This document shows, piece by piece, positions 2,200 through 58,617 of a DNA stretch of 64,000 nt. The stretch is from Candidatus Magasanikbacteria bacterium GW2011_GWC2_37_14 (GTDB taxonomy: Bacteria > Patescibacteriota > Patescibacteriia > Magasanikbacterales > UBA922): assembly GCA_000990355.1 (NCBI GenBank), contig LBSX01000001.1, forward strand, positions 3,392 to 67,391. The letters run 5' to 3'. A model generated the notes under the pieces. It saw only the letters and a program-made list of their open reading frames with translations. It was not told the origin of the DNA and did no database searches. Made by a program: the position numbers and the translations under genes. Position 1 is the first letter of the stretch. Every line of letters starts with the position of its first letter.

Positions 2200-2589
2200 T
2201 TATACACGACGTCTTTTTGGAGGACGGCAACCATTATGAGGAATAGGGGTAACGTCCTTTACGGACAAAACTTGAATTCCATTATTATTTAAAGCGCGAA
2301 TAGCTCCTTCGCGACCACCACCAATACCTTTTACAAAAACATGAACTTCTTTTATACCAGTAGGTGCAGTAGCATCGATAACCTTTTTTACTACCTGAGA
2401 AGCAGCATAAGGAGTAGCTTTTTTTGGTCCTTTAAAACCAACCATACCAGAAGAAGCCCAACCTAGTACATCGCCATTGGAATCAGTAATACTAACAATA
2501 GTATTGTTGAAAGTAGCCTGAATATAGGCTCGACCATGGCTTACTTGTTTTACAATCTTTTTCTTTTTTGAAACGGCAGCTTTTGCCAT
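2200..2589 (-). CDS. rpsK: 30S ribosomal protein S11
   Basis: 129 aa, ...[45 protein letters not shown]... Confidence 0.9.
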
Positions 2590-2616
2590 AAATCTACCAA
2601 CTTATAAAAAAATTAA

Positions 2617-3003
2617 TTAAGTTTTTTGAGCTGATGGTTTTTTACCAGAAGTGGCAAGATTACGTTTGTTGCCACGCACAGTACGACTGTTTGTTTTACT
2701 TCTTTGGCCACGCACTGGCAAATGTTTGGTGTGGCGTGAACCACGATAACTCTTGATATCTTTTAAACGTTTGATACTACTGGCAACTTCACGACGCAAG
2801 TCACCTTCGGTTTTGTATTGTTTTTCGACAATAGTTCGAATTTTGTCTTGTTCGGCATCGGTAAGATCTTTTACTCGAACAGTGTCTTTAATCTGGGCAG
2901 CAGACAAAATTTTCTTGGCAGAATTATCACCAATGCCATAAATATAAGTAAGAGCGATTAAAACTCTTTTTTCTTTTGGAATAGATACACCGGCTAAACG
3001 CAT
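2617..3003 (-). CDS. rpsM: 30S ribosomal protein S13
   Basis: 128 aa, [25 protein letters not shown]... Confidence 0.9.
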
Positions 3004-3014
3004 AAATATTATTA

Positions 3015-3152
3015 TTAAGCTGATTTTTTTCTCATTTTAGAACCCTGACGTTGTTTGTGACGAGGATTTTCGCAAATAACATAAATAGTGCCACTTCTAC
3101 GCACGGTTTTACACTTTGCACATCTTGGTTTTACAGAACCACTAACTTTCAT
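3015..3152 (-). CDS. rpmJ: 50S ribosomal protein L36
   Basis: The internal Met of the 82-aa track ORF gives [37 protein letters not shown] plus a short tail, which matches L36. The ATG maps to 3150-3152. Confidence 0.8.
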
Positions 3153-3289
3153 ATTTCGTATTATTTTAATTATAGAACTAAAAAATACCAACCACTGCCG
3201 CAATTTAAGCGCTCGCCTCAATGACATAACAGCCTTTTCAAGAGGACTTGAGCTACACTGCACTGGTTGATACTCCTTTATTTATAATT

Positions 3290-3505
3290 TTAGAAACGAT
3301 AATTGATTCGACCCTTGGTAAGGTCATAAGGTGTTAATTCCACCCGGACCTCATCTCCTACTCCCAAGCGAATGTGATTCATTCGCATTTTTCCCGAGAG
3401 ATGAGCAATTAGCTCATGGCCGTTTTCCAATTTAACGCGGAAAGTGCCGGCAGGTAATAATTCTTCAATTCTACCCCGCATTTCCACTACATCAATTTTT
3501 GACAT
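3290..3505 (-). CDS. infA: translation initiation factor IF-1
   Basis: 71 aa, [68 protein letters not shown]1-like IF-1. Confidence 0.9.
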
Positions 3506-3570: not shown

Positions 3571-5475
3571 TTAACTGTGAATAAGTATTGCTTTAATTCT
3601 ACGCACCCCAGCGCTGCATGCTTCTTCTTTGGTAATTTTAAAATGCCCCATCACACCAGTATTTTGTACATGGGGCCCACCACAAAATTCAATACTAAAA
3701 TCAGCAATTTTGTAAACTTTAACTACTTCACCATACTTACTTAAATCAAACGAACGCACAGTAACCAAATCTTTGGCTTGATCTTTTGGCAGTTCTTGCA
3801 TTTGCACGGTAATATTTTCCGCAATTTTTTGATTAACCAAATCTTCTACTACTTTAATTTGTTCAGCAGTTAATTTATCTGGCCAATTAAAATCAAAACG
3901 TAAACGCTCAGCAGTAATATTACTGCCCTTTTGTACAATATCAGCCCCCAACACTTGTCGTAAAGAAGCAAGCAAAAGATGTGTAGCGGTATGATATTTA
4001 GTAGATTGTTCCGAAGTGTCAGCTAGTCCCCCTTTGAATTTTTGTTCAGCACCAGCGCGTGAAAGTTGTTGGTGCTTAGTCATTTCTTCATTAAAAGAAT
4101 TTATATCAACCGTTAATTTATTTTCTGTTGCCAATTCAATGGTCATTTCCAAAGGGAAACCATATGATTGAAATAAATCAAAAGCTTCTTTACCAGAAAT
4201 AGTTTTACCAGCTTCACTACCTAACAAAATATATTGACTAAACATTTTAATCCCCTTTTCCAAAGTCTCTCTAAATTTTGTTTCTTCTTTTTCTAATTCA
4301 TTTAAAATAAAATCTTTTTTCTGTAACAATTCTGGATAAGCCTGGCTGTATTCATCAATATAAATTTTGGCAACCTCTACACAAAAATTATTATTAATTC
4401 CCAAATCTCGAGCATAACGCACCGAACGACGAATCAACCGCCGAGTAAAATAACCCTGGTCTCTGTTTGAGGGTACGGCTTGGTCACTAATCAAAAATGT
4501 TGCCGCCCGTAAATGATCCAAAATTACCCGAAAAGCATAAATAATTTTTTCGTTTTCATTATAACTATGTCCGGATAATTTTTCTAATAATTTAATTACA
4601 CTTGCAAACAAATCAATTTTAAACATGTCGGGATTATTATTCAAAGCTGCGGCCATTCTTTCTAATCCTCCACCAAAGTCAATATTTTTTTGTTTTAATT
4701 CTTCAAAACCCATGCGAGTTTTTTTGTATTGCATAAAAACATTGTTGCCAATTTCCATAAAACGGCCACAATCGCAATTTACATGACAAGGTTCACTACT
4801 CCATTTGGAATTTTCATGTAATTTTAATTCTGACCCAAAATCCCAAAACATTTCACTATCTGGTCCACCCGGTTCTCCGAGTGGCATATTTTCTGGCACC
4901 CCAGCCCTGCTCCACCAATTTTTCTTAGCATCATAATAAAAAATTCTACCATCCTGCATACCATCTCGTTCGGAATTTTCTACAATCTTGGCCTCAAGGC
5001 CAACAGTTTTAAATTTTGCTTTCCACAATTCTGCTGCTTTTTCGTCTCGTGAAATAGCAAAACTGTCTGCCCCACTAAAACAAGTAACATATAATTTATT
5101 TGGGTCTAGACCAATTTCTTTAATTAAAAATTCAAACATCCACTCAATCTGTTCTTTTTTAAAATAATCTCCCAAAGACCAATTACCAAGCATTTCAAAA
5201 AAAGTTGTATGACGATTATCACCCACATCATCAATGTCCTGACTACGAAATGATTTTTGTGAATCACAAATTCTTGTTCCCAAAGGATGACGCTCACCAA
5301 GTAAATATGGCACCATTGGTTGCATACCCGAACCAGTAAACAAGGTTGTAGGATCATTTTCGGGAATTAATGATGCCGAAGGAATAATTGTATGACCTTT
5401 GCCACCAAAAAAAGATCCACCTTTTGCGGAAAAAAATTCCAAATATTTTGTACGTAGTTCATGTGAAGTGATCAT
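3571..5475 (-). CDS. alaS: alanine--tRNA ligase, short form (634 aa)
   Basis: N-terminal class II core FFGGKGHTIIPSASLIPENDPTTLFTGSGM...TTFFEMLGNWSLGDYFK. Editing-domain H/C motifs are near the C-terminus. It lacks the long C-terminal extension of the canonical ~870-aa enzyme. Confidence 0.85.
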   Translation of the reverse strand: MITSHELRTKYLEFFSAKGGSFFGGKGHTIIPSASLIPENDPTTLFTGSGMQPMVPYLLGERHPLGTRICDSQKSFRSQDIDDVGDNRHTTFFEMLGNWSLGDYFKKEQIEWMFEFLIKEIGLDPNKLYVTCFSGADSFAISRDEKAAELWKAKFKTVGLEAKIVENSERDGMQDGRIFYYDAKKNWWSRAGVPENMPLGEPGGPDSEMFWDFGSELKLHENSKWSSEPCHVNCDCGRFMEIGNNVFMQYKKTRMGFEELKQKNIDFGGGLERMAAALNNNPDMFKIDLFASVIKLLEKLSGHSYNENEKIIYAFRVILDHLRAATFLISDQAVPSNRDQGYFTRRLIRRSVRYARDLGINNNFCVEVAKIYIDEYSQAYPELLQKKDFILNELEKEETKFRETLEKGIKMFSQYILLGSEAGKTISGKEAFDLFQSYGFPLEMTIELATENKLTVDINSFNEEMTKHQQLSRAGAEQKFKGGLADTSEQSTKYHTATHLLLASLRQVLGADIVQKGSNITAERLRFDFNWPDKLTAEQIKVVEDLVNQKIAENITVQMQELPKDQAKDLVTVRSFDLSKYGEVVKVYKIADFSIEFCGGPHVQNTGVMGHFKITKEEACSAGVRRIKAILIHS

Positions 5476-7095: not shown

Positions 7096-8424
7096 TTACT
7101 TTATCACCCCACCTCCCAAACACTCGTTGTTCTTATAAAAAACTGCGAATTGACCAGGAGTGACGGCGCGTTGGGGGTGGGTGAAATGAACCAATAACCC
7201 CCCTCGCCCCCCTTTATTAAGTGGGGAAACGACACAGTCTTGCAACTGTTGGCGATGACGGAGACGTACTTTACATTTTAATGGCCCGCCTTCGCTAATG
7301 CTTCGTCGGGTAAATTCATTAATCCAATTAACATTATAAATAATAATCTCTTTTTTGTACAATAAAGGGTCATTTTCAAAACCAACAATTAATATATTTT
7401 TCTTGATATTTTTATCAATTACAAAATATGGCTGGGTGTCTGTCCTTCTCTTTCCAAGAGAAGGTGGTCGAAGGCCGGAAGAGTTTGCCGGAGTCTTGGC
7501 GGGCCTCGGCAACTCCCCCTGAACCCCCTCCCTGCCTGCCGGCAAGGCAGGTTGGTAAGAGAGGGACACCCCGATGCGTTCACCAATAGTATAAAAAGGT
7601 AAGCCAGTATGTTCACCAACTGCTCCCACTCCCCCTACCCCCTCTCGGGCAGAGGGGGACAATAAAATTTTCCCTTGTTTAGCTTTTACTTTATTTTTTA
7701 AAAAATCACGCATTGGTACTTCGCCAATAAAACAAATTCCCATACTTTCTTCTTTTTCGGCCGTTGGCAATTTAAATTTCTTGGCTAATTTTCTTACTTC
7801 GGGTTTGGTATATCCACCTATTGGAAATAAAACTTGGCATAATTGTTCTTGATTAAGTTGATGAAGAAAATATGTTTGATCTTTGTTGTCGTCTTTGGCT
7901 TGTAATAAAGAAATATTAGCCTGCCCTGGCGCAGCAAAGCGAAGCCGGGCATAATGACCAGTCGCGATTTTCTCAAATCCCATTTTCTTAGCTTTCTCCA
8001 ACCAAAAACCAAACTTTACAAATTTATTACATAAAATATCGGGGTTCGGAGTGCGACCAGTAGAATATTCTTTATACATGTAATCCAAAACAAATTTTTT
8101 GTACTCTTTAACAAAATCCCAGCGTATCAAAGGAATCCCCAAATGTGCGGCTACTCGCAAGGCGTCTTGATAATCTGGCACCCAACAGGGCTCCGCTACG
8201 CTGCGCCCTGTAAACTCTCCACTGCGCCCTGTAAACTCAGAACTCGAACCTGCCAGGCGCAATTCGGAAAATGGAGCCTGGTAATTTACCGCAAACATAC
8301 CAGTAACATCATAACCTTGTTCAACCAAAAGAGCAGCAGCAACTGATGAATCAACACCGCCACTCATTGCTACAAGTATCCTTCGACTTTGCTCAGGATG
8401 AATTTTTTCTTTTTTTACAGTCAT
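7096..8424 (-). CDS. mnmA: tRNA-specific 2-thiouridylase MnmA carrying two in-frame insertions
   Basis: PP-loop SGGVDSSVAA at the N-terminus. The C-terminus (...RLRHRQ...) is typical of MnmA. There is a ~75-aa GC-rich insertion at 7440-7660 and a tandem SEFTGRS-GEFTGRS insert at 8196-8240. Confidence 0.85.
   Translation of the reverse strand: MTVKKEKIHPEQSRRILVAMSGGVDSSVAAALLVEQGYDVTGMFAVNYQAPFSELRLAGSSSEFTGRSGEFTGRSVAEPCWVPDYQDALRVAAHLGIPLIRWDFVKEYKKFVLDYMYKEYSTGRTPNPDILCNKFVKFGFWLEKAKKMGFEKIATGHYARLRFAAPGQANISLLQAKDDNKDQTYFLHQLNQEQLCQVLFPIGGYTKPEVRKLAKKFKLPTAEKEESMGICFIGEVPMRDFLKNKVKAKQGKILLSPSAREGVGGVGAVGEHTGLPFYTIGERIGVSLSYQPALPAGREGVQGELPRPAKTPANSSGLRPPSLGKRRTDTQPYFVIDKNIKKNILIVGFENDPLLYKKEIIIYNVNWINEFTRRSISEGGPLKCKVRLRHRQQLQDCVVSPLNKGGRGGLLVHFTHPQRAVTPGQFAVFYKNNECLGGGVIK
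7440..7660. repeat. GC-rich palindrome-containing insertion inside mnmA (in-frame)
   Basis: Contains the hairpin cctgcctgccggcaaggcagg (compare cctgcctgccggtaggcagg at 49300-49320) and ccctctcgggcagagggg. Local GC is far above the surrounding gene. Confidence 0.6.
8196..8240. repeat. Tandem duplication of a ~21-bp unit (ctgcgccctgtaaactc) inside mnmA, in-frame
   Basis: The unit is seen twice, at 8201-8217 and 8222-8238, encoding SEFTGRS/GEFTGRS. Confidence 0.7.
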
Positions 8425-11812: not shown

Positions 11813-11918
11813 ATTACGTTATTGCTAGAGTGGCGAATTTGGCTTAGTTAAGCTATTTTCATCCCAAGCAATATAGAGTGAACCTTACAATTTAGTTGAG
11901 TTTACAGTGTCATCAAGC

Positions 11919-11981
11919 GTCATTCCCGCGAAGGCGGGAATCTATATTTCATTGTAAGATCTCCGCCTGCGCGGAGATGAC
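11919..11981. repeat. Bipartite palindromic element (GTCATTCCCGCGAAGGCGGGAATC ... GATCTCCGCCTGCGCGGAGATGAC)
   Basis: Same architecture and near-identical arms to the copy at 58217-58278. It lies in the 5' leader of the GC-rich gene. Confidence 0.7.
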
Positions 11982-12123
11982 GCCAAACAAACGCACCAAA
12001 GGGTGTCTAAATTCTTATCTTTGTACAGGTAAGAACCTAGATGCCCTTTGGTCGAGGGGGCTTCATTCGCTCGGAAATCCCGAGCACGAAAATTTCGACC
12101 ACGAACCACCATGGGAGAGACAG

Positions 12124-12867
12124 ATGACGAAGGGATACCAGTACCCCTACCGCACGAAATTGTGGGACCCGATGAGCGTGCGCCTGATCGAAGTGCCAAC
12201 CGACGCGGTCGGCTGCGTCATTCGCGGCCGCCACGCCGAGCCGGTGCGCGTGGGCCCGGACCACGCGCGCTCCCTGACGCCCGATGGCATCGCCATGGCC
12301 ATGACGGTTCAGATCCAGTACAGGGCGCTCATCGGCTTCCTGGGGAAGCACTTCGCCGAGCCGGCCTACTGGGCGTCGAACGCGGTGCGCTCAATCGTGA
12401 GCACGGCCCTGGCCACCGGGGCCGAGGTGGTGGAGCAGGACTCCCTGCTCAACTTGACGATCTCTATCGCCAAGGCGCCTGACCCCGAGGGCTGCCACGC
12501 CAACTTCCACGAGCACTGCGTGGCCAAGGGCATCAAGCTGGGCGAGATGTTCCGCTGGGTCACGGAAGATCCGGCGCGCTTCGGCGACCAGCCCGTGGAA
12601 GAGGCGCTCGCCAAGTGCAACGCCTTCAACACCAAGCTGATCGCGACCAGCGGCAACGAGGGACGATTCAAGGTCACTTTCGACCACGAACCGGCCAACT
12701 CGCTGTGGGCGAGGAGGAACGGCGTCTCGTTGGACGATCTAGGCCTGGACGTGCTCCAGGCCTACATCATCTTCCTGGGTGGACCGCACGGACACGTCCT
12801 CAGTGTCCAGAAGTTCTACCCGGACACCACCGCGACCCTGCCGGTCGTCTCCGCCACCTCGCGCTGA
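12124..12867 (+). CDS. hypothetical protein encoded by a ~64% GC island (possible horizontally acquired cargo)
   Basis: 247 aa from the ATG at 12124, with GGGAGAG RBS-like sequence 5 nt upstream; MTKGYQYPYRTKLWDPMSVRLIEVPTD.... An upstream 28-codon ORF (12041-12127) ends in a TGA that overlaps this ATG. The track ORF begins further upstream at a TTG, and an ATG at 11977 is an alternative start. Confidence 0.5.
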   Translation: MTKGYQYPYRTKLWDPMSVRLIEVPTDAVGCVIRGRHAEPVRVGPDHARSLTPDGIAMAMTVQIQYRALIGFLGKHFAEPAYWASNAVRSIVSTALATGAEVVEQDSLLNLTISIAKAPDPEGCHANFHEHCVAKGIKLGEMFRWVTEDPARFGDQPVEEALAKCNAFNTKLIATSGNEGRFKVTFDHEPANSLWARRNGVSLDDLGLDVLQAYIIFLGGPHGHVLSVQKFYPDTTATLPVVSATSR

Positions 12868-13030
12868 TTCCCACCGCCACCTCTCACCTCTCTCGCCCCC
12901 TGCCACGTCGTCGTCAGACTTTACGTGGTCTCACGGGCACAACTCAACATCAAGGTTCGCTCTCAACCCCCGTGGTTCACACCCGGGGGAAGAGACTAAT
13001 TCAATCATTTATAAATGATTGAATTACTTC

Positions 13031-13069
13031 ACACAAAATCCACCAAAAAGGTGGATTTTGTGTTTTTGT
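13031..13069 (+). terminator. Rho-independent terminator (14-bp perfect stem plus T-tract)
   Basis: acacaaaatccacc-aaaaa-ggtggattttgtgt followed by tttt. Confidence 0.7.
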
Positions 13070-13074
13070 CTGAC

Positions 13075-13560
13075 CCCTCCTTACGAAGGAGGGGTGACTT
13101 CGACCTTCGCAGGTCGGAGACGGGGTGGTTAGAGTTTGTTAAGATATTTACAGGTGTTATAAATATCCTCAATAGTTTCATGTAGATATCTAAATACCTG
13201 TTCTGAAGTATATCTGTTTATGGTGAGTCCAAGTGATTTTAAATAATTTTCTTTTTTAATATCTTTTTCTTGCACTAGTTCATCTTCATGAGTACTACCA
13301 TCCACTTCTATAGCTAGTTTTAGTTGTTGACAATAGAAATCTACGACTACATTGCCAACCCCACATTGACGACGAAATTTATAACCTAATTGTCTATTTG
13401 ATAAGTGTTTCCACAAAACTGTTTCACTCTTGGTTGGCTGATTCCTTAAAATCTTTCTTAGTTTGGTTTTTGTTTTTTGATTGAAAATTTTTGTCATACT
13501 TAACCACCTCCCCCCGACTGCGACGTCGGGGTACTCCTCCTTCGTAAGGAGGAGTCAATG
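13075..13560. mobile_element. Candidate miniature mobile element: ~60-bp imperfect terminal inverted repeats flanking a DUF559 endonuclease gene
   Basis: Left arm, 13075-13135: cccctccttacgaaggaggggtgacttcgaccttcgcaggtcggagacggggtggtta. The reverse complement of the right arm, 13500-13560, is tgactcctccttacgaaggaggagtaccccgacgtcgcagtcggggggaggtggtta. Confidence 0.45.
13129..13497 (-). CDS. DUF559-family endonuclease-domain protein (Vsr/restriction-endonuclease-like fold)
   Basis: 122 aa with ETVLWKHLSNRQLGYKFRRQCGVGNVVVDFYCQQLKLAIEVDGSTHE, the characteristic DUF559 motif set. Confidence 0.7.
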   Translation of the reverse strand: MTKIFNQKTKTKLRKILRNQPTKSETVLWKHLSNRQLGYKFRRQCGVGNVVVDFYCQQLKLAIEVDGSTHEDELVQEKDIKKENYLKSLGLTINRYTSEQVFRYLHETIEDIYNTCKYLNKL

Positions 13561-13575
13561 AACAAATACGTAATT

Positions 13576-14165
13576 TTATTTAAATAAAATTTCTCTTTTC
13601 AACTCCCCCAACTCCTTGTACAACACTGTTTTCACACCCAACTTTTTTGCCTCGGCCATATTTATTAATTGATCATCAACCATCATTACTTCATTTGCTT
13701 TTACTTTATAACGATTAAAAAGATAAAGCATGGTAACCTTGCTCGCTTTAGGTAATTTTAATTCCCAAGTATTAATAATATTTTTGCCAAAAATTTTTTT
13801 TAATTCCGGAAAAATATTATTAATGTCTTTAAATTGTGGTCGGGTATTTTTGGATAATAGCAAAGTCTTAATCCCCCGCCTGCCATGCCGGCTTAAGGCA
13901 AAATTTGTTTATTCAAACCAAAAGTTGAATAATGAATTTGTTTTAATTCTTTGCCAGTAATTGATATGTTTAAAGCTTTGACCGCTTTTTCCCAAGCAGA
14001 CTTTTGACTTATCTTTCTTTCAGCAGCTTCATTAAAAAATCCATATATAATTTTATAAGCATGTTTCTCATTAATTTTAAATCTCTTGGCTACTTTTTTT
14101 GCAGTAAACGGATAACCACCAGTAATTACTACTCCGTAAGCATCAAAAATAATTAATTTGATCAT
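13576..14165 (-). pseudogene. HAD-superfamily hydrolase split into two ORFs (13893-14165 N-half, 13576-13863 C-half)
   Basis: The N-half has motif I (IIFDAYGV). The C-half has motif III/IV (MMVDDQLINMAEAKKLG). The halves are separated by a stop plus frameshift within a 29-nt GC-rich segment (cccccgcctgccatgccggc). The C-half starts at a TTG in the track. Confidence 0.4.
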
Positions 14166-45900: not shown

Positions 45901-48804
45901 TTAAGCGCCATGACACTTTTTGTATTTTTTTCCACTCCCACAAGGACAAGGATCATTTCTGCCAATTTTTTCTCCGGTTTCTTCGTTCCGAGGTTTACTC
46001 TCTGTTTGTCCACTAGCCAATTCTACCGAATCACTACCTTTTAAAACCATTTTTTCCGAAGCCATAATTGACGGTGCCAACTGAATACCCAAACCAATTT
46101 TGAAAAATGAATATACTACTTCTTTTTGAATTCCACTAAGCAATTCATTAAACATTTGATAGGTTTCTTTTTTGTATTCTACCAGTGGATCACGTTGGCC
46201 ATAACCACGGAGTCCTATACCAGTACGCAAATAATCAATCGCTACCAAGTGATCTACCCAAAAACTATCTATGGAACGAAGCAAAATATTTTTTTCTAAT
46301 TCATGCATCGCACGCTCTCCTTCTTCTGACGTTCCAAAATTAGACATTACCTTTTCTTTAAAAACCTCATATTCTTTTTCGGCCTTATTCATTAAAAACT
46401 TTACAATTTCATCACGCACCACCACGTCTTCTAATTTGGAATTGCCATTTTTGGTTAAGTGTAACAAGGTCTCACGTTCTTCGTTGGTAAAAGAAAAAAT
46501 AGTATGCATGGTTTCGTAAATTTCTTTGAGATCCCATTCATTTTTGTCGGGTAAATTGGTATGAAAAGAAACGACAAAATTTATTTCTTCGGCAATTAAA
46601 TCCATGATTGTTTCTTGTAAACTAAGATATTTCTTATCAAAGTCATGAGAATTTTCGTCTTTAATAACTTCTTCTTGATTTACTTTAAAATTTGCAGCTA
46701 AATTTAAAATCTGACGTCGTTTTTTGTAAATTACATCGCGATGTTTGTTTAAGACATCATCATATTCCAACAAATGTTTACGAGAATCAAAATGAAAACC
46801 TTCAACTTTCTTTTGTGCGCCTTCCAACATGCGAGTAATCATGCGTTGTTCAATTGGCATGTCTTCGGGCACTTTTAATGTGGTCATGACACTCTTAATT
46901 CGGTCGCCAGCAAAAATTCGCATTAAGTCATCTTCGGTAGACACAAAAAATTGGGTTTCACCAGGATCACCTTGACGAGCACTACGACCACGAAGTTGAT
47001 TATCAATACGACGTGCTTCGTGGCGTTCGGTACCAAGCACAAACAAACCACCAGCTTGGCAAACAATCTCTGCCTCTTCTTTATTTATTGGGTTGCCACC
47101 AAGCTTAATGTCTACACCACGACCAGCCATATTAGTGGCCAAGGTAATTGCGCCTGGTCTACCTGCTTGGGCAATAATTTCCGCTTCACGTTCGTGATTT
47201 TTGGCATTTAAAATTTCATGTTTAATGCCTTCTACTGTTAAGTAAGCACTTAATTCTTCATTTTTTTCTACCGAAATAGTACCAATCAACATTGGCTGAT
47301 TTTTGGCTCGACATTCTTTGATTTTTTCAATGATTGCTTTGTTTTTGGCGCGTTCATGACGATAAATACGATCGGGATGATCAACTCGTTGATCACCCTT
47401 GTTGGTAGGAATAGTAATAACATCCAAATTATATATTTTACCAAATTCTTCTTTTTCGGTTTCGGCCGTACCAGTCATACCCGATAACTTGCGGTACATG
47501 CGAAATAAATTTTGGAAAGTAATTGTGGCCAAAGTTTGACTTTCGCGTTGGATTTTAACATTTTCTTTGGCTTCAATAGCTTGATGAAGTCCTTCGGAAT
47601 AACGACGGCCTGGCATTTTGCGTCCCGTAAATTCGTCGATAATAATAATTTCACCGTTATCGACAATATAATCACGATCACGTTTGAATAATACTTCGGC
47701 TTTTAAAGCTTGTTCGATATGATGGACTAATTTTATACCACCTTCTTCGTAAATATTGGCCACATTTAACCATTTTTCAAATTTGGCAATGCCTTGTTCG
47801 GTAAGAGTGGCCGAACGCATTTTTTCGTCCAAATTATAATCTCCCAAATCGTCGGGATTAACTGGAGTATTGTCGTTTTTACTAAGCATGCCAAAACCAG
47901 TGGTATCTTTTACAGTTTTATCTTCTTTTAATTGACGAACTAATTTGGCAAATTGATAATACTGATCTGTGGCTTCTTCGGCTGGGGCAGAAATAATTAG
48001 CGGAGTACGAGCTTCATCAATTAGAATAGAATCTACTTCGTCGACAATTGCATAATGCATTTCATCACCAGGGCGCATTACCATTTCTTCCAAACTCTGT
48101 ACCATGTTGTCGCGCAAATAATCAAAACCAAATTCATTGTTGGTACCATAAGTAATATCACAACGATAAGTTTCTTGGCGTGAACAAGGAACAAGAAATT
48201 CATCTTCAATTTTAAAACTTTCTATTTCACTTTCTTTTTCTAATTCTTCAACTTTGCGGATTTCCTCCCCTTGGAAAGGGGAGGTTGGGAGGGGTTGATT
48301 TTTATTAGCATTATATTTATACGACACGCGCATGTTTTGAATAATACCCACACTCATGCCCAAAAAATCATAAATTTTACTCATCCATACAGCATCGCGT
48401 TTGGCCAAATAATCATTGACAGTTACTACATGCACACCTTTGCCTTCCAAAGCATTTAAATAAACCGGCAAAGTGGCTACCAAAGTTTTACCTTCACCAG
48501 TACGCATTTCGGCAATACTACCTTTGTGCAACATGGTGCCACCAATAAGTTGTACATCGTAGTGACGCATACCTAAAACACGGTGTGCAGTTTCGCGCAC
48601 CGTAGCAAAAGCTTCTGGTAAAATATCATCCAATGTTTCGCCTTTAACCAGACGTTCTTTAAATTCAATAGTTTTGTGTTTTAGTTCATCATCAGTTAAT
48701 TTTTGCCAAGCAGGTTCTAAACTATTAACTTTTTCAACAATCGGCTGAACTGCACGAACAAATTTTTTACTAGGATCGCCAAATATTTTTTCAAGAAATT
48801 GCAT
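45901..48804 (-). CDS. secA: preprotein translocase ATPase SecA (with an in-frame hairpin insert near the N-terminus)
   Basis: 967 aa; DEAD-like motor motifs. C-terminal zinc finger CPCGSGKKYKKCHG. The insert at 48258-48300 (cccctcccaacctcccctttccaaggggagg) encodes ..SPFQGEEIRK.. Confidence 0.9.
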   Translation of the reverse strand: MQFLEKIFGDPSKKFVRAVQPIVEKVNSLEPAWQKLTDDELKHKTIEFKERLVKGETLDDILPEAFATVRETAHRVLGMRHYDVQLIGGTMLHKGSIAEMRTGEGKTLVATLPVYLNALEGKGVHVVTVNDYLAKRDAVWMSKIYDFLGMSVGIIQNMRVSYKYNANKNQPLPTSPFQGEEIRKVEELEKESEIESFKIEDEFLVPCSRQETYRCDITYGTNNEFGFDYLRDNMVQSLEEMVMRPGDEMHYAIVDEVDSILIDEARTPLIISAPAEEATDQYYQFAKLVRQLKEDKTVKDTTGFGMLSKNDNTPVNPDDLGDYNLDEKMRSATLTEQGIAKFEKWLNVANIYEEGGIKLVHHIEQALKAEVLFKRDRDYIVDNGEIIIIDEFTGRKMPGRRYSEGLHQAIEAKENVKIQRESQTLATITFQNLFRMYRKLSGMTGTAETEKEEFGKIYNLDVITIPTNKGDQRVDHPDRIYRHERAKNKAIIEKIKECRAKNQPMLIGTISVEKNEELSAYLTVEGIKHEILNAKNHEREAEIIAQAGRPGAITLATNMAGRGVDIKLGGNPINKEEAEIVCQAGGLFVLGTERHEARRIDNQLRGRSARQGDPGETQFFVSTEDDLMRIFAGDRIKSVMTTLKVPEDMPIEQRMITRMLEGAQKKVEGFHFDSRKHLLEYDDVLNKHRDVIYKKRRQILNLAANFKVNQEEVIKDENSHDFDKKYLSLQETIMDLIAEEINFVVSFHTNLPDKNEWDLKEIYETMHTIFSFTNEERETLLHLTKNGNSKLEDVVVRDEIVKFLMNKAEKEYEVFKEKVMSNFGTSEEGERAMHELEKNILLRSIDSFWVDHLVAIDYLRTGIGLRGYGQRDPLVEYKKETYQMFNELLSGIQKEVVYSFFKIGLGIQLAPSIMASEKMVLKGSDSVELASGQTESKPRNEETGEKIGRNDPCPCGSGKKYKKCHGA

Positions 48805-48817
48805 AAAATAATAATAT

Positions 48818-48845
48818 TCCCCTCCCCCTTGTAGGGGGAGGAAAA
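48818..48845. repeat. GC hairpin ttcccctccccc-ttgta-gggggaggaaa in the secA 5' UTR
   Basis: Perfect 10-bp G/C stem 14 nt upstream of the secA ATG. It sequesters a GGAGG that could serve as the SD. Related hairpins are at 48258-48300, 49264-49300 and 49350-49380. Confidence 0.6.
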
Positions 48846-49268: not shown

Positions 49269-49380
49269 TGTTTCCCTCCCCTACAAGGGGAGGGTTAGCC
49301 TGCCTGCCGGTAGGCAGGGGTGGGGTCTGGCAAACAGCGAAACCTCCTCCTCGCCTCCCCCTTATAGGGGGAGGAAAATT
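49264..49380. repeat. Cluster of three GC hairpins (ccctcccctacaaggggaggg; cctgcctgccggtaggcagg; cctcccccttatagggggagg) downstream of hpf
   Basis: Perfect palindromes directly readable. Likely terminator(s) for hpf on the minus strand. Confidence 0.65.
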
Positions 49381-53433: not shown

Positions 53434-53563
53434 AATATTTTCAAGACCCAATCTTAATTAACAAATAATTACTAATTAAGATTGCTGGGGCCTTGAACGA
53501 CCACCAGCCAGAGGCGGGTTGGTCGAGGGATAAGAAAGAACGGAGGGAAGGAACAGACGCTAT

Positions 53564-54157
53564 CTAGCCGCTGGTGGGCCAGAGGCGCTTGTTGGTGGCG
53601 ATGGCCATGTCGTAATTGGCGGTGATCTGGAAGACCTTGTGGGCCATGAGCTTCTGGAAATGCAATCTCATGGTGGCATGACCACCCACTTCCAAGAACA
53701 GGGTGTAGTCGGTCGGGTCGCAGAGGACAGTGACCGACTTGTGGTTCTTGGCCCCAGCGCGCAACATGGCGGGGCCACCGATGTCGATGTTCTCGACCAG
53801 TTCGTCGCGCGTGACGTCGGGGTTGGCCGCCACCAGCTCGAAAGGGTAGAGGTTCACGACAACCAGATCGATACCCTGGATGCCGTGCTTCTCCAGGAAG
53901 TTCAGGTGTACCCGGTTGTCGCGCTTGTAGAGGATGCCCGCATGGATCTGCGGGCAGAGGGTTTTTACCCTACCATCCAGACCCTCGGGGAAGCCCGTGA
54001 CCTCGGCCACGTCGGTGACCGCGATGTCCTGCTCACGCAGGAACTTGGCGGTACCGCCCGTACTGAGGATCTCCCAGCCGAAGTCCACCAAGGCCTTGGC
54101 CAGTTCCACTACACCGGTCTTGTCGAACACACTGATCAACGCTCGGGGCATGGGCAC
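53564..54157 (-). CDS. Stand-alone PurH N-terminal (MGS-like / IMP cyclohydrolase) domain protein, encoded on a ~62% GC island
   Basis: 197 aa; ALISVFDKTGVVELAKALVDFGWEILSTGGTAKFL...GRVKTLCPQIHAGIL...VVNLYPF...DIGGPAMLRAGAKNHKSVTV. This aligns motif by motif with the IMPCH domain of PurH, but the ~390-aa AICAR transformylase domain is absent. There is a perfect AGGAGGTG SD 5 nt upstream. Confidence 0.7.
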   Translation of the reverse strand: MPMPRALISVFDKTGVVELAKALVDFGWEILSTGGTAKFLREQDIAVTDVAEVTGFPEGLDGRVKTLCPQIHAGILYKRDNRVHLNFLEKHGIQGIDLVVVNLYPFELVAANPDVTRDELVENIDIGGPAMLRAGAKNHKSVTVLCDPTDYTLFLEVGGHATMRLHFQKLMAHKVFQITANYDMAIATNKRLWPTSG

Positions 54158-54288
54158 CTCCTGATTACTGGCTAAACCGGAAAGACGTTAATTTCAATTT
54201 AACACAAATAATGCAAATTAGCAAGAGTGTGATGTTTCGATACAAAAACTTGATTTTTTATTGATTTTTTGCTAAGCTATACGGGCTT

Positions 54289-55410
54289 ATGAATGTACCG
54301 CTAGAGACAATCAACGAGCTTAAAACTGCCATTAGCTTTGGTATTTTTTCGTGTATTATTGCTTTTCTTTGGGCACCTGCCTTAACCAAAATTTTATACA
54401 AATTTAAACTTACTCGCCAAGCCGAATACGACGCTACCATGGGCGTGACTAGTAAGGCTGGCACCCCAATTATGGGCGGGCTCTTGGTAATTATTACCGT
54501 AGCTTTAATTACCATTTTATTTAACTGGGAAAGAAAATTTACTTGGGTGCCAATTGGCGTAATGTTGCTTTCTGCGCTCTTGGGTGGCATTGATGATGTA
54601 ATGCACATTTACGGCCACGAAAGACGCAACCGCAAGTTAAAACAAATTTTTACGCTTATTCGTGTTCATTCTGATCGGAAATACCGTGTTTGGCTAGTTA
54701 TTACTTTACCTTGGTCAATTTTTAAACGCTTGGCTTTGATTTTGGGTTCTCATCCTGGCAAAGGCGTACATGTTCACGAAAAATTATTATTACAATTTGC
54801 CGCCGGCGGGATTACTGCTTGGTGGGTTTATTTCAAATTAGGCGAACACTGGCAATTAATTAGTGTGCCTTTTGATGGACTTGTAAATATTGGTTTTTGG
54901 ATAATTCCTTTAATTATTTTTTTTGTAATGTTTACTGCCAATGCCGTAAATGTAGCCGATGGTATGGATGGCTTGGCCGGCGGATCACTTATTCTTACTT
55001 TTTCCACGCTTACAATTTTAAGCTGGCTTACCGGGTATCAAGAAATTACTCTTTTAAATGCTACTGCGTCGGGCGCTTTAATTACTTATACTTATTTCAA
55101 TGTTAAACCCGCACGCTTTCAAATGGGCGATGTTGGTTCACTAGGTTTGGGTGCGCTCTTGGCAATTAATACGATTGTCATGAACAAAATGCTCTTACTC
55201 CCCTTTTTGGCTTTTATTTTTTACGTAGAATTATTTAGCGTAATTATTCAAATTATTGGTCGCTATACTTTGGGCCGAAGAATTTTTAAAATGGCGCCAC
55301 TACACCATCATTTTGAATTAAAAGGTTGGAGTGAAGAAAAAACTGTAATGCGTTTTTGGATTGCTCATGGCGCCATGGTGCTTTTGGGATTGTGGATTGC
55401 TTTGTACTAA
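54289..55410 (+). CDS. mraY: phospho-N-acetylmuramoyl-pentapeptide transferase, with a ~60-aa insertion
   Basis: NAVNVADGMDGLAGG, PLHHHFELKGW. An extra segment (HERRNRKLKQIFTLIRVHSDRKYRVW...GKGVHVHEKLLLQ) lies between conserved blocks. Confidence 0.85.
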   Translation: MNVPLETINELKTAISFGIFSCIIAFLWAPALTKILYKFKLTRQAEYDATMGVTSKAGTPIMGGLLVIITVALITILFNWERKFTWVPIGVMLLSALLGGIDDVMHIYGHERRNRKLKQIFTLIRVHSDRKYRVWLVITLPWSIFKRLALILGSHPGKGVHVHEKLLLQFAAGGITAWWVYFKLGEHWQLISVPFDGLVNIGFWIIPLIIFFVMFTANAVNVADGMDGLAGGSLILTFSTLTILSWLTGYQEITLLNATASGALITYTYFNVKPARFQMGDVGSLGLGALLAINTIVMNKMLLLPFLAFIFYVELFSVIIQIIGRYTLGRRIFKMAPLHHHFELKGWSEEKTVMRFWIAHGAMVLLGLWIALY

Positions 55411-57108: not shown

Positions 57109-58617
57109 ATGAGAATCCATTTCATCGGTATCTGTGGTGTGGCTATGTCGGCCTTGGCAATAGCTTTTAAAAAAGCTGGACACGAAAAACTGCCTGATGG
57201 CAGTCTCGTGCCATGCTTTGAGGTATCGGGGAGTGATGTGGGATTTTTTCCACCGGTTTCTACAAATTTGGAAAAACATAATATAAAATTTTATCCTGGC
57301 TGGCATCCAGAAAAAATGGGAACGCCTGATTTAGTGGTAGTTGGCAATGTCGCTAGTTCCACCAATCCCGAATGGCAATACGTGCAAGAAAAAAAATTAA
57401 ATTACAAATCTTACCCAGAAGCAATTGAAGAATTTTTTATTAAAGAAAATTCCATTGTTTGTGCTGGTACTTATGGTAAAACCACTACTTCGGCGTTGTT
57501 GGCTTTTGTTTTAAGTGAATGCGGATACAACCCAAGTTATATGTTTGGCGGGATTGCTGTGGATGAGGGGTTTGACAGTGCCAGCTTAGGAAATGAGCCA
57601 CGTAAAGTTCAGACTTCGTCTGAACCACGTGGCGGTTACTCCGTAACCGAAGGGGATGAGTACAAGAGCGCACGCTGGGACAATGGAGCAAAATTTTTTC
57701 ATTATCACCCCACTCACCTACTCTTAACTGCCATACAGTGGGATCATGCTGATGTTTATCCAACAGAAGAAAGTTATTTTGAGGCATTTGAAAAATTAGT
57801 TAAGTCTGTTCCAGAAAATGGATTGCTTGTAATGAGTGAACAGATATCAGATAGCAAATATCAGATAGCAAATAGCATACGATATGGTCAATCCGAAAAA
57901 AATGATTACGTATATTTTGACATCCACCAAACAAAAGACGGAATTAAATTTCAAATTAAACATAATGCTATTTGTTATTTGTTATCTGCCAATATGTTCG
58001 GTTCTTACAACGCCGAAAACATAACTGGAGTATTCGCATTGGCAAATGAGATCGGTTTAGAACCAGAAAAAATTATTTCTGCAATAAATAAATTTAAAGG
58101 CTTAAAAAGAAGATTGGAAAAACGTTATGAAAATAAAATAACAATTTTTGATGATATTGCTCATTCACCTGCCAAAGCAAATAGTGTTTTACAAACTTTA
58201 GCCAAAATATATAAGCGTCATCCCCGCGAAGGCGGGGATCTTACGGAGATTCAAGATTCCCGCCTTCGCGGGAATGACGAACCAAAACTATTTTGTGTTT
58301 TTGAACCAAACACTGGAAACCGTCAAGCACAATCTGCGCCAAGCTATAGCAATGCTTTCAAAGATGCCGATGAAGTTATTATTCCCAAACTTACTAAATT
58401 AAAAACTTCCGAAGAATTAAAACATTGGGAAGGAAAAGAATTAGCCGAGATTATCTCCCAAATCCATAACAACGTAAAATATCTTGAAAATGATAATGAA
58501 TTAATAAATTATTTAATTAATAATACAAGCGAAGGCGATGTGATTGTTTTTTGTGGCAGTCACGGCTTTCGTGGCATGATTGATGAATTAATTTTGTCAT
58601 TCCGAACCCACAGGTGA
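57109..58617 (+). CDS. murC: Mur ligase family protein (UDP-N-acetylmuramate--L-alanine ligase MurC / Mpl-like) with in-frame palindromic inserts
   Basis: IHFIGICGVAMSALA..GSD Rossmann start and P-loop CAGTYGKTTTSALLAFVL. In-frame inserts at 57590-57640 (palindrome gccacgtaaagttcagac/gtctgaaccacgtggc) and 58217-58278. The C-terminus (..ILSFRTHR*) is supplied by the element at 58596. Confidence 0.75.
   Translation: MRIHFIGICGVAMSALAIAFKKAGHEKLPDGSLVPCFEVSGSDVGFFPPVSTNLEKHNIKFYPGWHPEKMGTPDLVVVGNVASSTNPEWQYVQEKKLNYKSYPEAIEEFFIKENSIVCAGTYGKTTTSALLAFVLSECGYNPSYMFGGIAVDEGFDSASLGNEPRKVQTSSEPRGGYSVTEGDEYKSARWDNGAKFFHYHPTHLLLTAIQWDHADVYPTEESYFEAFEKLVKSVPENGLLVMSEQISDSKYQIANSIRYGQSEKNDYVYFDIHQTKDGIKFQIKHNAICYLLSANMFGSYNAENITGVFALANEIGLEPEKIISAINKFKGLKRRLEKRYENKITIFDDIAHSPAKANSVLQTLAKIYKRHPREGGDLTEIQDSRLRGNDEPKLFCVFEPNTGNRQAQSAPSYSNAFKDADEVIIPKLTKLKTSEELKHWEGKELAEIISQIHNNVKYLENDNELINYLINNTSEGDVIVFCGSHGFRGMIDELILSFRTHR
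58217..58278. repeat. Bipartite palindromic element (CATCCCCGCGAAGGCGGGGATC / GATTCCCGCCTTCGCGGGAATGAC) in-frame in murC-like
   Basis: Encodes ..HPREGGDLTEIQDSRLRGNDE..; sibling of 11919-11981. Confidence 0.8.

Follow-up and report, generated by a model that had tools for sequence, protein, structure and literature searches.

A DUF559 endonuclease gene between inverted triplex-type repeats: a candidate selfish cassette in Candidatus Magasanikbacteria

What kind of unit is a lone gene for a small nuclease-like protein enclosed by GC-rich inverted repeats? The question is raised by a locus of Candidatus Magasanikbacteria bacterium GW2011_GWC2_37_14, a groundwater bacterium of the Candidate Phyla Radiation (CPR), where a DUF559 gene stands between paired hairpins in low-GC DNA (~33% GC). 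The whole stretch analyzed, referred to as the window, comprises 64,000 nucleotides of contig LBSX01000001.1 (positions 3,392 to 67,391), and a first-pass annotation of its letters had taken the locus for a nuclease-carrying mobile cassette. The reading that we regard as moderately probable is that the feature, 493 bp long, is a selfish cassette: a DUF559 endonuclease gene between two inverted motifs of the BoxC/PIT/TM type (TM, triplex motif), whose nuclease would act on the ends and which would spread in a homing-like manner.

The extent of the element follows from comparison with its homologues (L numbers designate the loci compared). Homology between the window and locus L006 starts at TGACTCC, 60-63 nt 5' of the ATG, and stops at GGGG(T/A)CAGACAAA, 62-64 nt 3' of the stop codon; beyond these points the flanks are unrelated and belong to different gene neighborhoods. 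These limits set the element at 13065-13557, a refinement of the 13075-13560 proposed at first pass. Its parts are as follows.

13065-13557, minus strand: whole cassette (5' end, DUF559 gene, 3' end), 493 bp, boundaries by homology with L006.
13533-13557, minus strand: hairpin 1 of the 5' end, coding strand TGA-CTCCTCCTT-acg-AAGGAGGAG-T, made of a pyrimidine arm (Y), a loop and a purine arm (R).
13512-13531, minus strand: hairpin 2 of the 5' end, CCCCGAC-gtcgca-GTCGGGG, occupying the second loop, between R and R'.
13502-13510, minus strand: mirror block R' of the 5' end, coding strand GAGGTGGTT, window letters AACCACCTC, doubling as the Shine-Dalgarno region.
13129-13497, minus strand: open reading frame (ORF) of a putative DUF559 (Vsr-fold PD-(D/E)XK) endonuclease, 122 amino acids (aa), stop codon counted.
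13122-13130, plus strand: mirror block of the 3' end, plus strand GGGGTGGTT, coding strand AACCACCCC, overlapping the TAA stop at 13129-13131.
13098-13119, plus strand: hairpin 2' of the 3' end, CTTCGACCT-tcgc-AGGTCGGAG.
13071-13095, plus strand: hairpin 1' of the 3' end, TG-ACCCCTCCTT-acg-AAGGAGGGGT, with the loop of the opposite end in reverse complement.
13065-13072, plus strand: outer extension of the 3' end, coding strand ...CAGACAAA, common to L006.

Read on the coding strand, the 3' side runs TAACCACCCC, second hairpin, CCCCTCCTT-cgt-AAGGAGGGG-TCA. The outer hairpins (13071-13095 and 13533-13557, 25 nt) are 92% complementary, while the middle hairpins (13098-13119 and 13512-13531) keep position and pairing but differ in sequence. 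The two flanks, described earlier as near reverse complements of ~60 bp, are such in the outer hairpin and the inner block only. Hairpin 1 is 100% identical in L004, L006 and L008, where the synonymous sites of the gene are near saturation, hairpin 1' is identical in L004 and L006, and hairpin 1 and R' stay unchanged among copies with synonymous divergence (pS) up to 0.7. Hairpin 2 evolves through compensatory substitutions or wholesale replacement: L006 has CCTCCCGAC/GTCGGGAGG at its position, so that the pairing is retained and the sequence altered, and hairpin 2' is wholly swapped for another hairpin in L004 and L006. An inverted counterpart of the outer extension, (C/T)TTG(G)TCTG, is found at the 5' end of L006 and L008 and is degenerate in the window. 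Both ends form a double-hairpin fold on either strand (z = -3.7 to -5.3; 0-1 of 200 shuffles equal).

With its terminal inverted repeats the cassette resembles a transposon or insertion sequence (IS). The target-site duplications that the first-pass annotation proposed to look for are absent at the homology-defined boundaries (window ...gttcat|TGA and AAA|aacaca; L006 ...tggtc|TGA and AAA|taatta). Rfam at gathering thresholds gives no match anywhere in the window, so the ends are not a known RNA family, and the window holds no tRNA or tmRNA genes. An integron gene cassette (attC) was rejected: no integrase gene lies nearby, and the core-like GTTAAGT is not conserved in homologues.

The 122-aa ORF was correctly assigned to DUF559 from the letters alone. 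It matches the Pfam family (PF04480) with E=9e-27 and 93.5 bits against a gathering cutoff of 20.6, and residues 11-116 cover profile positions 4-108 of 109, that is, the whole domain. It is the sole ORF of the cassette, which holds no other Pfam family and none of the known transposase classes (DDE, HUH, serine, tyrosine). For the AlphaFold model of the protein (pLDDT 85.8), Foldseek ranks 3HRL best (E=9e-8), followed by I-Bth0305I (3R3P, E=4e-4) and, more weakly, Vsr itself (1CW0, E=0.2). The structure 3HRL is NGO0050 of Neisseria gonorrhoeae, labelled 'endonuclease-like protein' and of unknown function, with a profile match of E=2e-25. Residues D53, E64, D66 and H70 are invariant among 14 homologues, and the modelled protein has a restriction-endonuclease-like fold with conserved acidic and His residues. 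Two narrower assignments were rejected, the Vsr mismatch endonuclease (TIGR00632; 21.8 bits against an NCBIfam cutoff of 97.85) and the YcjD equivalog (NF007294; 50.4 bits against 218). Strong purifying selection acts on the ORF (dN/dS 0.03-0.17 relative to L004, L006 and L008), and the ends of the cassette show such selection as well.

Gene and ends recur together. Close homologues (78-92% aa identity) have the same ends as the window cassette; L004 and L005 are syntenic with the window, and L006 and L008 lie in unrelated neighborhoods. A more distant homologue (L007, 61% aa) stands upstream of murB with hairpin 1 only on each side. The sequence common to L095 and L098 is the cassette alone, homology stopping at the module ends as it does between the window and L006. 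The architecture is kept in homologues from CPR, Ignavibacteria, Planctomycetes, Cyanobacteria, Bacteroidota and others, and the distribution of DUF559 across phyla is patchy and multi-copy. In 160 loci gathered with a DUF559 profile from reference genomes and metagenomes, pyrimidine-first hairpins lie no more than ~110 nt from 88 of 141 gene starts and 90 of 141 gene ends, where background density would give ~10%. The loops of the two ends match as reverse complements at 55 positions and as direct copies at 21, and the inner blocks R' and Y' are complementary within loci (z ~7); the two ends are therefore true inverted repeats. Under strict module criteria, correctly oriented modules bracket 48 of 129 DUF559 ORFs, against a single one of the 424 other ORFs (90 aa or longer) on the same contigs; this one has no Pfam match.

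These counts bear on the plainest explanation, namely that two hairpins of abundant families happen to flank an ordinary gene. The genome does contain several GC-rich hairpin families, and the first-pass annotation had itself allowed that the repeats might be members of ubiquitous families in coincidental orientation. The family, identified below, is indeed ubiquitous; coincidence is another matter. Within the 64 kb the CCTCCTT/AAGGAGG hairpin occurs at two sites only, both of them cassette flanks, the ends are more conserved than the synonymous sites of the gene, and the arrangement returns in dozens of unrelated genomes with the bracketing specificity just given. Recurrence, conservation, specificity and shared boundaries already refute chance flanking, to which we assign next to no probability.

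The gene is also fitted to its ends. Its 5' inner block (R' core) lies a median of 14 nt from the ATG; in the window R' is followed by AAGT and then ATG, so placed that 4-5 nt separate GGAGGTGG from the start codon. In 26 of 71 cases the stop codon is supplied by the module, in the link or in the loop/purine arm, which accounts for C-terminal tails such as ...PSFVRRG in database homologues.

Beyond pairing, the ends share a third element, a second purine block on one side of the hairpin that is the mirror image of the purine arm at the base of the stem. At the 5' end the reversed R arm GAGGAGGAA and R' (GAGGTGGTT) obey the rule G to G, A to A or T at 9/9 positions, and at the 3' end the reversed arm GGGGAGGAA and the block GGGGTGGTT are compatible with it at 9/9. 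Among 369 perfect hairpins, 75% carry a mirror block on exactly one side (z=27 against permutation); direct repeats reach only z=3.7, and complementary blocks show no excess. The modules point one way in 149 cases and the other way in 135, with the block on both sides in 6. In 311 modules, a G of the arm is faced by G in 96% of mirror-block positions, and an A by A in 41% and by T in 52% (A/T 93%), G or C occurring there almost never; the linker measures 3 nt in 191 of the 311. To judge by these substitutions, the pattern is the G.GC, A.AT, T.AT code of an antiparallel purine-motif (class II) triplex.

By their sequence the cassette ends belong to a known repeat class, described first as BoxC, later as PIT elements and later as TM or, in Escherichia coli, TMECO, all one motif class (Holder et al. 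2015, PMC4666352). The first-pass annotation saw the inverted repeats and missed both their mirror, triplex-type nature and their membership in this class. According to the same work (PMC4666352), the intrastrand triplex motif is present in >260 genomes, often forms convergent inverted pairs 11-30 nt apart and marks loci unusually variable among strains, and the E. coli motif, the only sequence for which this is shown, forms a stable triplex in vitro as single-stranded DNA by circular dichroism and nuclear magnetic resonance. Both window ends fit the class II definition of ITxF (Y, R and R' of 6-15 nt, C-G.G and T-A.A/T triads, at most one mismatch) and depart from its range of 1-6 nt for both loops: loop 1 has 3 nt, and loop 2 has 21-27 nt because hairpin 2 sits in it. 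In L007, L146 and L079 the second loops are 3-4 nt, within that range. The window arms CTCCTCCTT/CCCCTCCTT do not match the TMECO consensus (CCCTCNCCC N3-6 GGGNGAGGG N3 GGGNGAGGG) and so represent another sequence family of the same class. A G-quadruplex reading of R-link-R' (preprint 10.1101/032615) is less likely, as subfamilies such as AAGAGAGGG/GGGAGAGA do not have the needed G-runs and keep the mirror relation.

Triplex modules repeatedly carry, nested in their loops or arms, a smaller palindrome of another family, CCTGCC(T)GCCGG(C/T)A(A)GGCAGG, both in the window (7531-7551 and 49299-49318) and in L011, L014, L099, L110 and L124; this suggests an independent tiny element that targets such modules.

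Modules also occur without the gene. The window contains 6 strict triplex-type modules against 0 in ten shuffles, and two of its three module pairs are gene-less. Its dispersed modules form sister sequence subfamilies rather than copies of the cassette's own.

7196-7226, minus strand: solo module within the mnmA ORF.
7441-7568, plus strand: gene-less pair of a sister subfamily, in frame inside mnmA, TGT-CCTTCTCTT-tcc-AAGAGAAGG...GGAAGAGTTTGCCGGAG, 11-nt spacer, CTCGGCAACTCCCCC-tga-CCCCCTCC(nested hairpin)AGAGAGGG-ACA.
7623-7661, minus strand: solo module, in frame inside mnmA, CTCCCACTCCCCC-ta-CCCCCTCTC-ggg-CAGAGGGGG-ACA.
48264-48295, plus strand: solo module, CCTCCCCTT-gga-AAGGGGAGG-ttg-GGAGGGGT.
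49274-49374, plus strand: convergent pair without a gene, a second hairpin occupying loop 2, laid out as the cassette ends, with a spacer of only 16 nt.

The pair at 7441-7568 has the inner blocks (GAGTTTGCCGGAG / CTCGGCAACTC) also found in the gene-carrying cassettes L010, L016, L095 and L098. Within mnmA (7096-8424) the insertions interrupt the MnmA middle domain recognized by Pfam; the protein, 100% identical to one from Candidatus Magasanikbacteria bacterium GW2011_GWC2_37, measures 442 aa, against ~355 for the baseline. Baseline homologues (355-366 aa, other Magasanikbacteria included) have none of the residues encoded by 7441-7568 and 7623-7661, exactly these segments being absent, among them the SPSAREGVGGVGA specified by the latter. 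Other CPR lineages have different module-derived MnmA inserts at the same hot spots. Further lineage-specific inserts in the window protein comprise a tandem EFTGRS-type repeat near 8195-8260 and short ones near the C-terminal domain. At 48821-48841 a plain hairpin, CCTCCCCCT-tgt-AGGGGGAGG, together with the module at 48264-48295, flanks the start region of a minus-strand gene.

Gene-less forms occur elsewhere as well. In L046 (Gemmatales JASGHE01, 2524-3440), the stretch immediately upstream of a gene-carrying unit is a tandem array of five to six units without the gene. Each array unit of ~92 bp consists of a 5'-type module, a 17-nt spacer and a 3'-type module; its two hairpins differ, and each mirror block fits its own hairpin. 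Locus L121 holds two tandem DUF559 cassettes that are 99.8% identical, and L056 and L110 hold mixed arrays in which tandem gene-less units adjoin the gene. Cognate hairpins of a DUF559 gene are also found at other places on its contig (37 matches, against 3-11 for foreign probes). The comparisons indicate that gene-less derivatives of the family, as convergent pairs, tandem arrays and solo modules, insert at new sites, housekeeping genes included.

These derivatives weigh on two further explanations. One takes the ends as purely cis-regulatory: control of translation would fall to the 5' hairpins and purine block, stabilization or termination of the mRNA to the 3' hairpins, and the symmetry would be incidental, with no mobility involved. 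The positions of the R' core and of the module-borne stop codons accord with it, as do stable hairpins on the mRNA-sense strand. It leaves aside modules that stand apart from any gene, point either way, form tandem arrays and lie in frame inside MnmA; the covariation, moreover, follows a purine-motif triplex code, and this triplex does not form in RNA, nor has promoter or terminator activity been found for PIT elements (PMC4666352). We consider a regulatory role by itself improbable. The other explanation is an invertible cassette, in which recombination between the repeats would flip the gene relative to an outside promoter as an on/off switch. The ends are inverted repeats of 25-60 nt, a form that inversion could use, and DUF559 proteins are enriched (odds ratio 14) among predicted programmed-inversion targets (PMC9881135). 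That enrichment is expected from the repeats themselves, no recombinase gene is adjacent, and inversion explains neither the gene-less pairs and arrays nor the triplex code, which makes a switch very improbable and somewhat more so than regulation.

The association of gene and motif extends to cultured organisms. The sole DUF559 gene examined in E. coli K-12, ycjD (1351407-1351760, minus strand), ends in ...TCA CCC TCT CCC TGA, so that a degenerate pyrimidine arm encodes its C-terminus and stop. Downstream of it (MG1655, L178, 1351160-1351420) part of the 3' end of ycjD is present a second time, and TMECO no. 9 (1351204-1351239) comes next, ~170 nt from ycjD. With 18 TMECO loci in 4.64 Mb, we calculate a chance of ~0.003 that one falls within ~250 nt of a given 354-nt gene. 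Four of the five E. coli TMECO pairs consist of a type B motif (link CCG) and, after it, a type A motif in antisense, whose link TTA is TAA read on the opposite strand; this layout would be expected of a gene-less cassette with a vestigial stop codon. The stretch of ycjD plus motif is present in 3377 of 5426 complete E. coli genomes, and the rest have eefRABCD (a TetR regulator plus an RND pump) at the locus; the two are mutually exclusive alleles between sapF and fabI, with the homology break ~40 nt from the motif. This polymorphism has been described independently, with at least two losses of eef inferred (PMC12817139). No triplex motif is found at the junction in E. coli strains without ycjD, and the eefRABCD island carried by these strains means that E. 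coli offers no clean filled/empty pair. In N. gonorrhoeae, a module (CCCTCTCCC-tgt-GGGAAAGAG-tta-GAGAGAGGG) precedes NGO0050, and a matching one follows it. In Photobacterium sp. GJ3, three modules with 148 bp spacing follow the DUF559 gene.

In the main rival explanation the modules spread or arise by replication slippage, recombination or some unknown enzyme, and DUF559 is a passenger or domesticated host factor, a repair or structure-processing nuclease that became embedded in a module pair and would not drive its own spread. Many modules and pairs have no DUF559 gene close by: E. coli has 23 TMECO and one ycjD, and the gene-less pairs of the window have been described above. Paralogues within a genome are old, purifying selection as strong as that on the protein would suit a host function too, and the Vsr relatives are repair enzymes. 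RAYTs, the transposases associated with repetitive extragenic palindromic (REP) sequences, are thought to be domesticated and offer a parallel. A passenger, on the other hand, would not be expected to have its start and stop built into the modules, to enter unrelated contexts with its ends as one unit whose homology stops at those ends, to be the only cargo (48/129 vs 1/424), or to show a patchy, multi-copy distribution across phyla. We therefore regard a passenger as unlikely and the selfish cassette as the better account.

Evidence on mobility also comes from the gene next to the cassette, which encodes a HAD hydrolase. In L169-L171 no more than 3 nt separate the HAD stop codon from a module made of a terminator hairpin, an AT-rich palindrome, a hairpin and TTTGAGAG(C/T)GAAC, and the cassette is absent; in the window and in L004 the L169-type terminator module sits just past the cassette. 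The check for empty sites proposed at first pass has thus found a cassette-free HAD-terminator junction, in a form that is not base-precise. Beyond the syntenic L004 and L005, the nearest HAD relatives are 61% identical.

The HAD gene itself (13576-14165) is split into two ORFs in the window and is intact, at 196 aa, in L004 and L005. At the split (~13868-13895) a GC-rich TAAGCCGGCATGGCAGGCGGGGG (gene strand) stands in place of the L004 sequence, 4 nt shorter and introducing a stop codon, and the public contigs L001 and L002 end near this point.

On the far side of the boundary module lies GC island 1 (window 11900-12990; also 53500-54300), with 63% GC in a 33% GC genome. Delivery of the island by the cassette, or joint travel of the two, as suggested at first pass, is refuted by their independent occurrence: L169 has the island and its boundary module but no cassette, and in L006, L007 and L008 the cassette stands without an island. 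The boundary module comprises a terminator hairpin, an AT-rich perfect palindrome at 12997-13026, a GC hairpin at 12968-12990 and TTGAGAGCGAAC. The same boundary adjoins other GC-rich content in Magasanikbacteria (L004 4440-5300, L169 4115-4960, L172 4640-5400), and the island ORFs of these relatives encode 148-239 aa, have no Pfam match and lie on the strand opposite to HAD. In the syntenic L172, a 115-aa coiled-coil-like ORF without a Pfam match (4221-4568) occupies the slot between HAD and the GC island that the DUF559 cassette fills in the window. GC island 1 thus has the look of a slot for variable GC-rich cassettes, one that is independent of DUF559. Paired hairpins ATTCCCGCGAAGGCGGGAAT / ATCTCCGCCTGCGCGGAGAT mark its edge (11922-11978), with ATCCCCGCGAAGGCGGGGAT / ATTCCCGCCTTCGCGGGAAT 46 kb away (58220-58275); their ATTCCC-N8-GGGAAT pattern may resemble the consensus of the Neisseria dRS3 repeat.

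The idea of a nuclease-carrying mobile cassette has largely held in the comparisons: a unit shared between unrelated contexts, gene-less derivatives, insertions into MnmA and a cassette-free junction in L169. From them we infer nuclease activity, its target and a copying route, which may be pictured as follows. Each end consists of a pyrimidine arm, a 3-nt loop, a purine arm, a second loop (here holding a small hairpin) and a mirror purine block. When single-stranded, the module would fold into a hairpin, and the mirror block would bind the stem as a third strand in the purine motif. The gene is built into these ends, the 5' mirror block serving as its ribosome-binding site and the 3' mirror block overlapping its stop. 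The DUF559 nuclease would recognize the structured ends or gene-less pairs and nick or cut at or near them, and break repair or recombination among dispersed near-identical modules would copy the gene and modules to new sites. Such spread would be homing-like or REP/RAYT-like rather than cut-and-paste with target duplication, which agrees less well with the absence of target duplications and with modules that could serve as ready-made homology arms.

Several observations weigh against this account of a selfish cassette. The triplex was undetected in vivo by Holder et al., who found TMECO always intergenic in E. coli (PMC4666352). Close relatives provide no base-precise filled/empty pair, the absent state of L169 not being base-precise either, and the relative with this absent state is only ~61% identical in the HAD protein. 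Strict two-sided bracketing holds for only 37% of DUF559 ORFs, and, as the loci were chosen through DUF559, the counts do not give the share of all module pairs that hold the gene. The DUF559 copy on a Synechocystis plasmid (B12) has outward-facing modules. Paralogues within a genome are 71-73% identical in nucleotide sequence, the tandem duplicate of L121 (99.8%) being the only exception, so that no recent burst of transposition within a genome is documented. A tblastn search of 50,697 phage records for carriage of the gene gave 0 matches.

BoxC/PIT/triplex repeats have been catalogued since the 1990s and tied to genome instability with no function assigned, and Holder et al. state explicitly that no function or mobilizing activity was ever found for them; DUF559, ycjD, an endonuclease or an associated mobility gene are all unmentioned in that paper (PMC4666352). 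DUF559, for its part, is a very widespread small family with a nuclease fold, of unknown role despite the 3HRL structure and E. coli YcjD. We tentatively propose, with less confidence than we place in the cassette itself, that DUF559 proteins are the missing enzyme partner of these repeats, structure-specific endonucleases that act on hairpin-triplex ends and drive a class of minimal selfish elements not recognized before, ~0.5 kb long, with one gene, triplex-forming ends and gene-less derivatives. Two long-standing unknowns would then explain each other, in a form testable in E. coli and Neisseria. From CPR to E. coli and Neisseria, the proposal would explain how triplex repeats originated and why the genome is unstable near them, and the in-frame insertions that remodel CPR housekeeping proteins would be accounted for. 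The literature searched contains no published link between DUF559 and triplex repeats, though work outside that set may hold one. Neither the motif class nor the protein family is new; their association, the cassette architecture, the gene-less derivatives and the in-frame CPR insertions appear to be undescribed.

The cassette can be set beside several known systems. Its ends share with BoxC/PIT/TM elements the three-block layout and the class II purine-motif code, and the family shares their convergent inverted pairs, wide phylogenetic spread and locally variable DNA. The window differs from them in its arms (CTCCTCCTT/AAGGAGGAG, against CCCTCNCCC/GGGNGAGGG in TMECO), in a second loop that is itself a hairpin of 20-26 nt and exceeds the 1-6-nt limit, and in a pair that encloses a gene; and, unlike the intergenic TMECO, modules of the Magasanikbacteria lineage also lie inside coding genes. 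The triplex modules beside both ycjD and NGO0050, members of the same Pfam family, extend the likeness to cultured bacteria, although the window protein is only ~33-36% identical to theirs; in the E. coli copy the arrangement is decayed: its 3' hairpin is degenerate, part of the gene's 3' end is duplicated, and a single module is intact.

Terminal inverted repeats around one gene, and short gene-less derivatives with the same ends, recall IS elements and their miniature inverted-repeat relatives (MITEs), and in-frame insertion into conserved genes recalls the Rickettsia palindromic elements. Unlike an IS, the cassette has no known transposase family and no target-site duplication, and at 493 bp it is, to our knowledge, shorter than any autonomous IS. 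Homing endonucleases of the Vsr-like (EDxHD) type, free-standing or intron-borne, such as I-Bth0305I, have a related catalytic fold (the Foldseek match given above) and are likewise small selfish nuclease genes; gene-less module pairs could correspond to their empty sites, with the modules as homology arms for homing. The DUF559 cassette differs in lying outside any intron or intein, and in its structured inverted ends, and sequence identity is only ~22%. A further parallel in organization is the REP/REPIN-RAYT system (REPtrons), where one small nuclease-type gene lies between inverted structured repeats that are also dispersed as singlets, doublets and arrays, again with no target-site duplication. 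As in a REPtron, the flanking inverted repeats of the cassette family are also dispersed in the same genome, although within the 64-kb window the dispersed modules are of sister sequence subfamilies. In place of an IS200/IS605-like HUH Y1 transposase, however, Pfam finds only DUF559, a Vsr-fold PD-(D/E)XK enzyme with putative activity, and the place of a plain palindrome is taken by a homopyrimidine/homopurine hairpin to which a mirror block is added as third element, with the translation signals of the gene inside the repeat. If the association is functional, the DUF559 cassette would represent a REP/RAYT-like system that has another enzyme fold and a non-B DNA structure at its basis.

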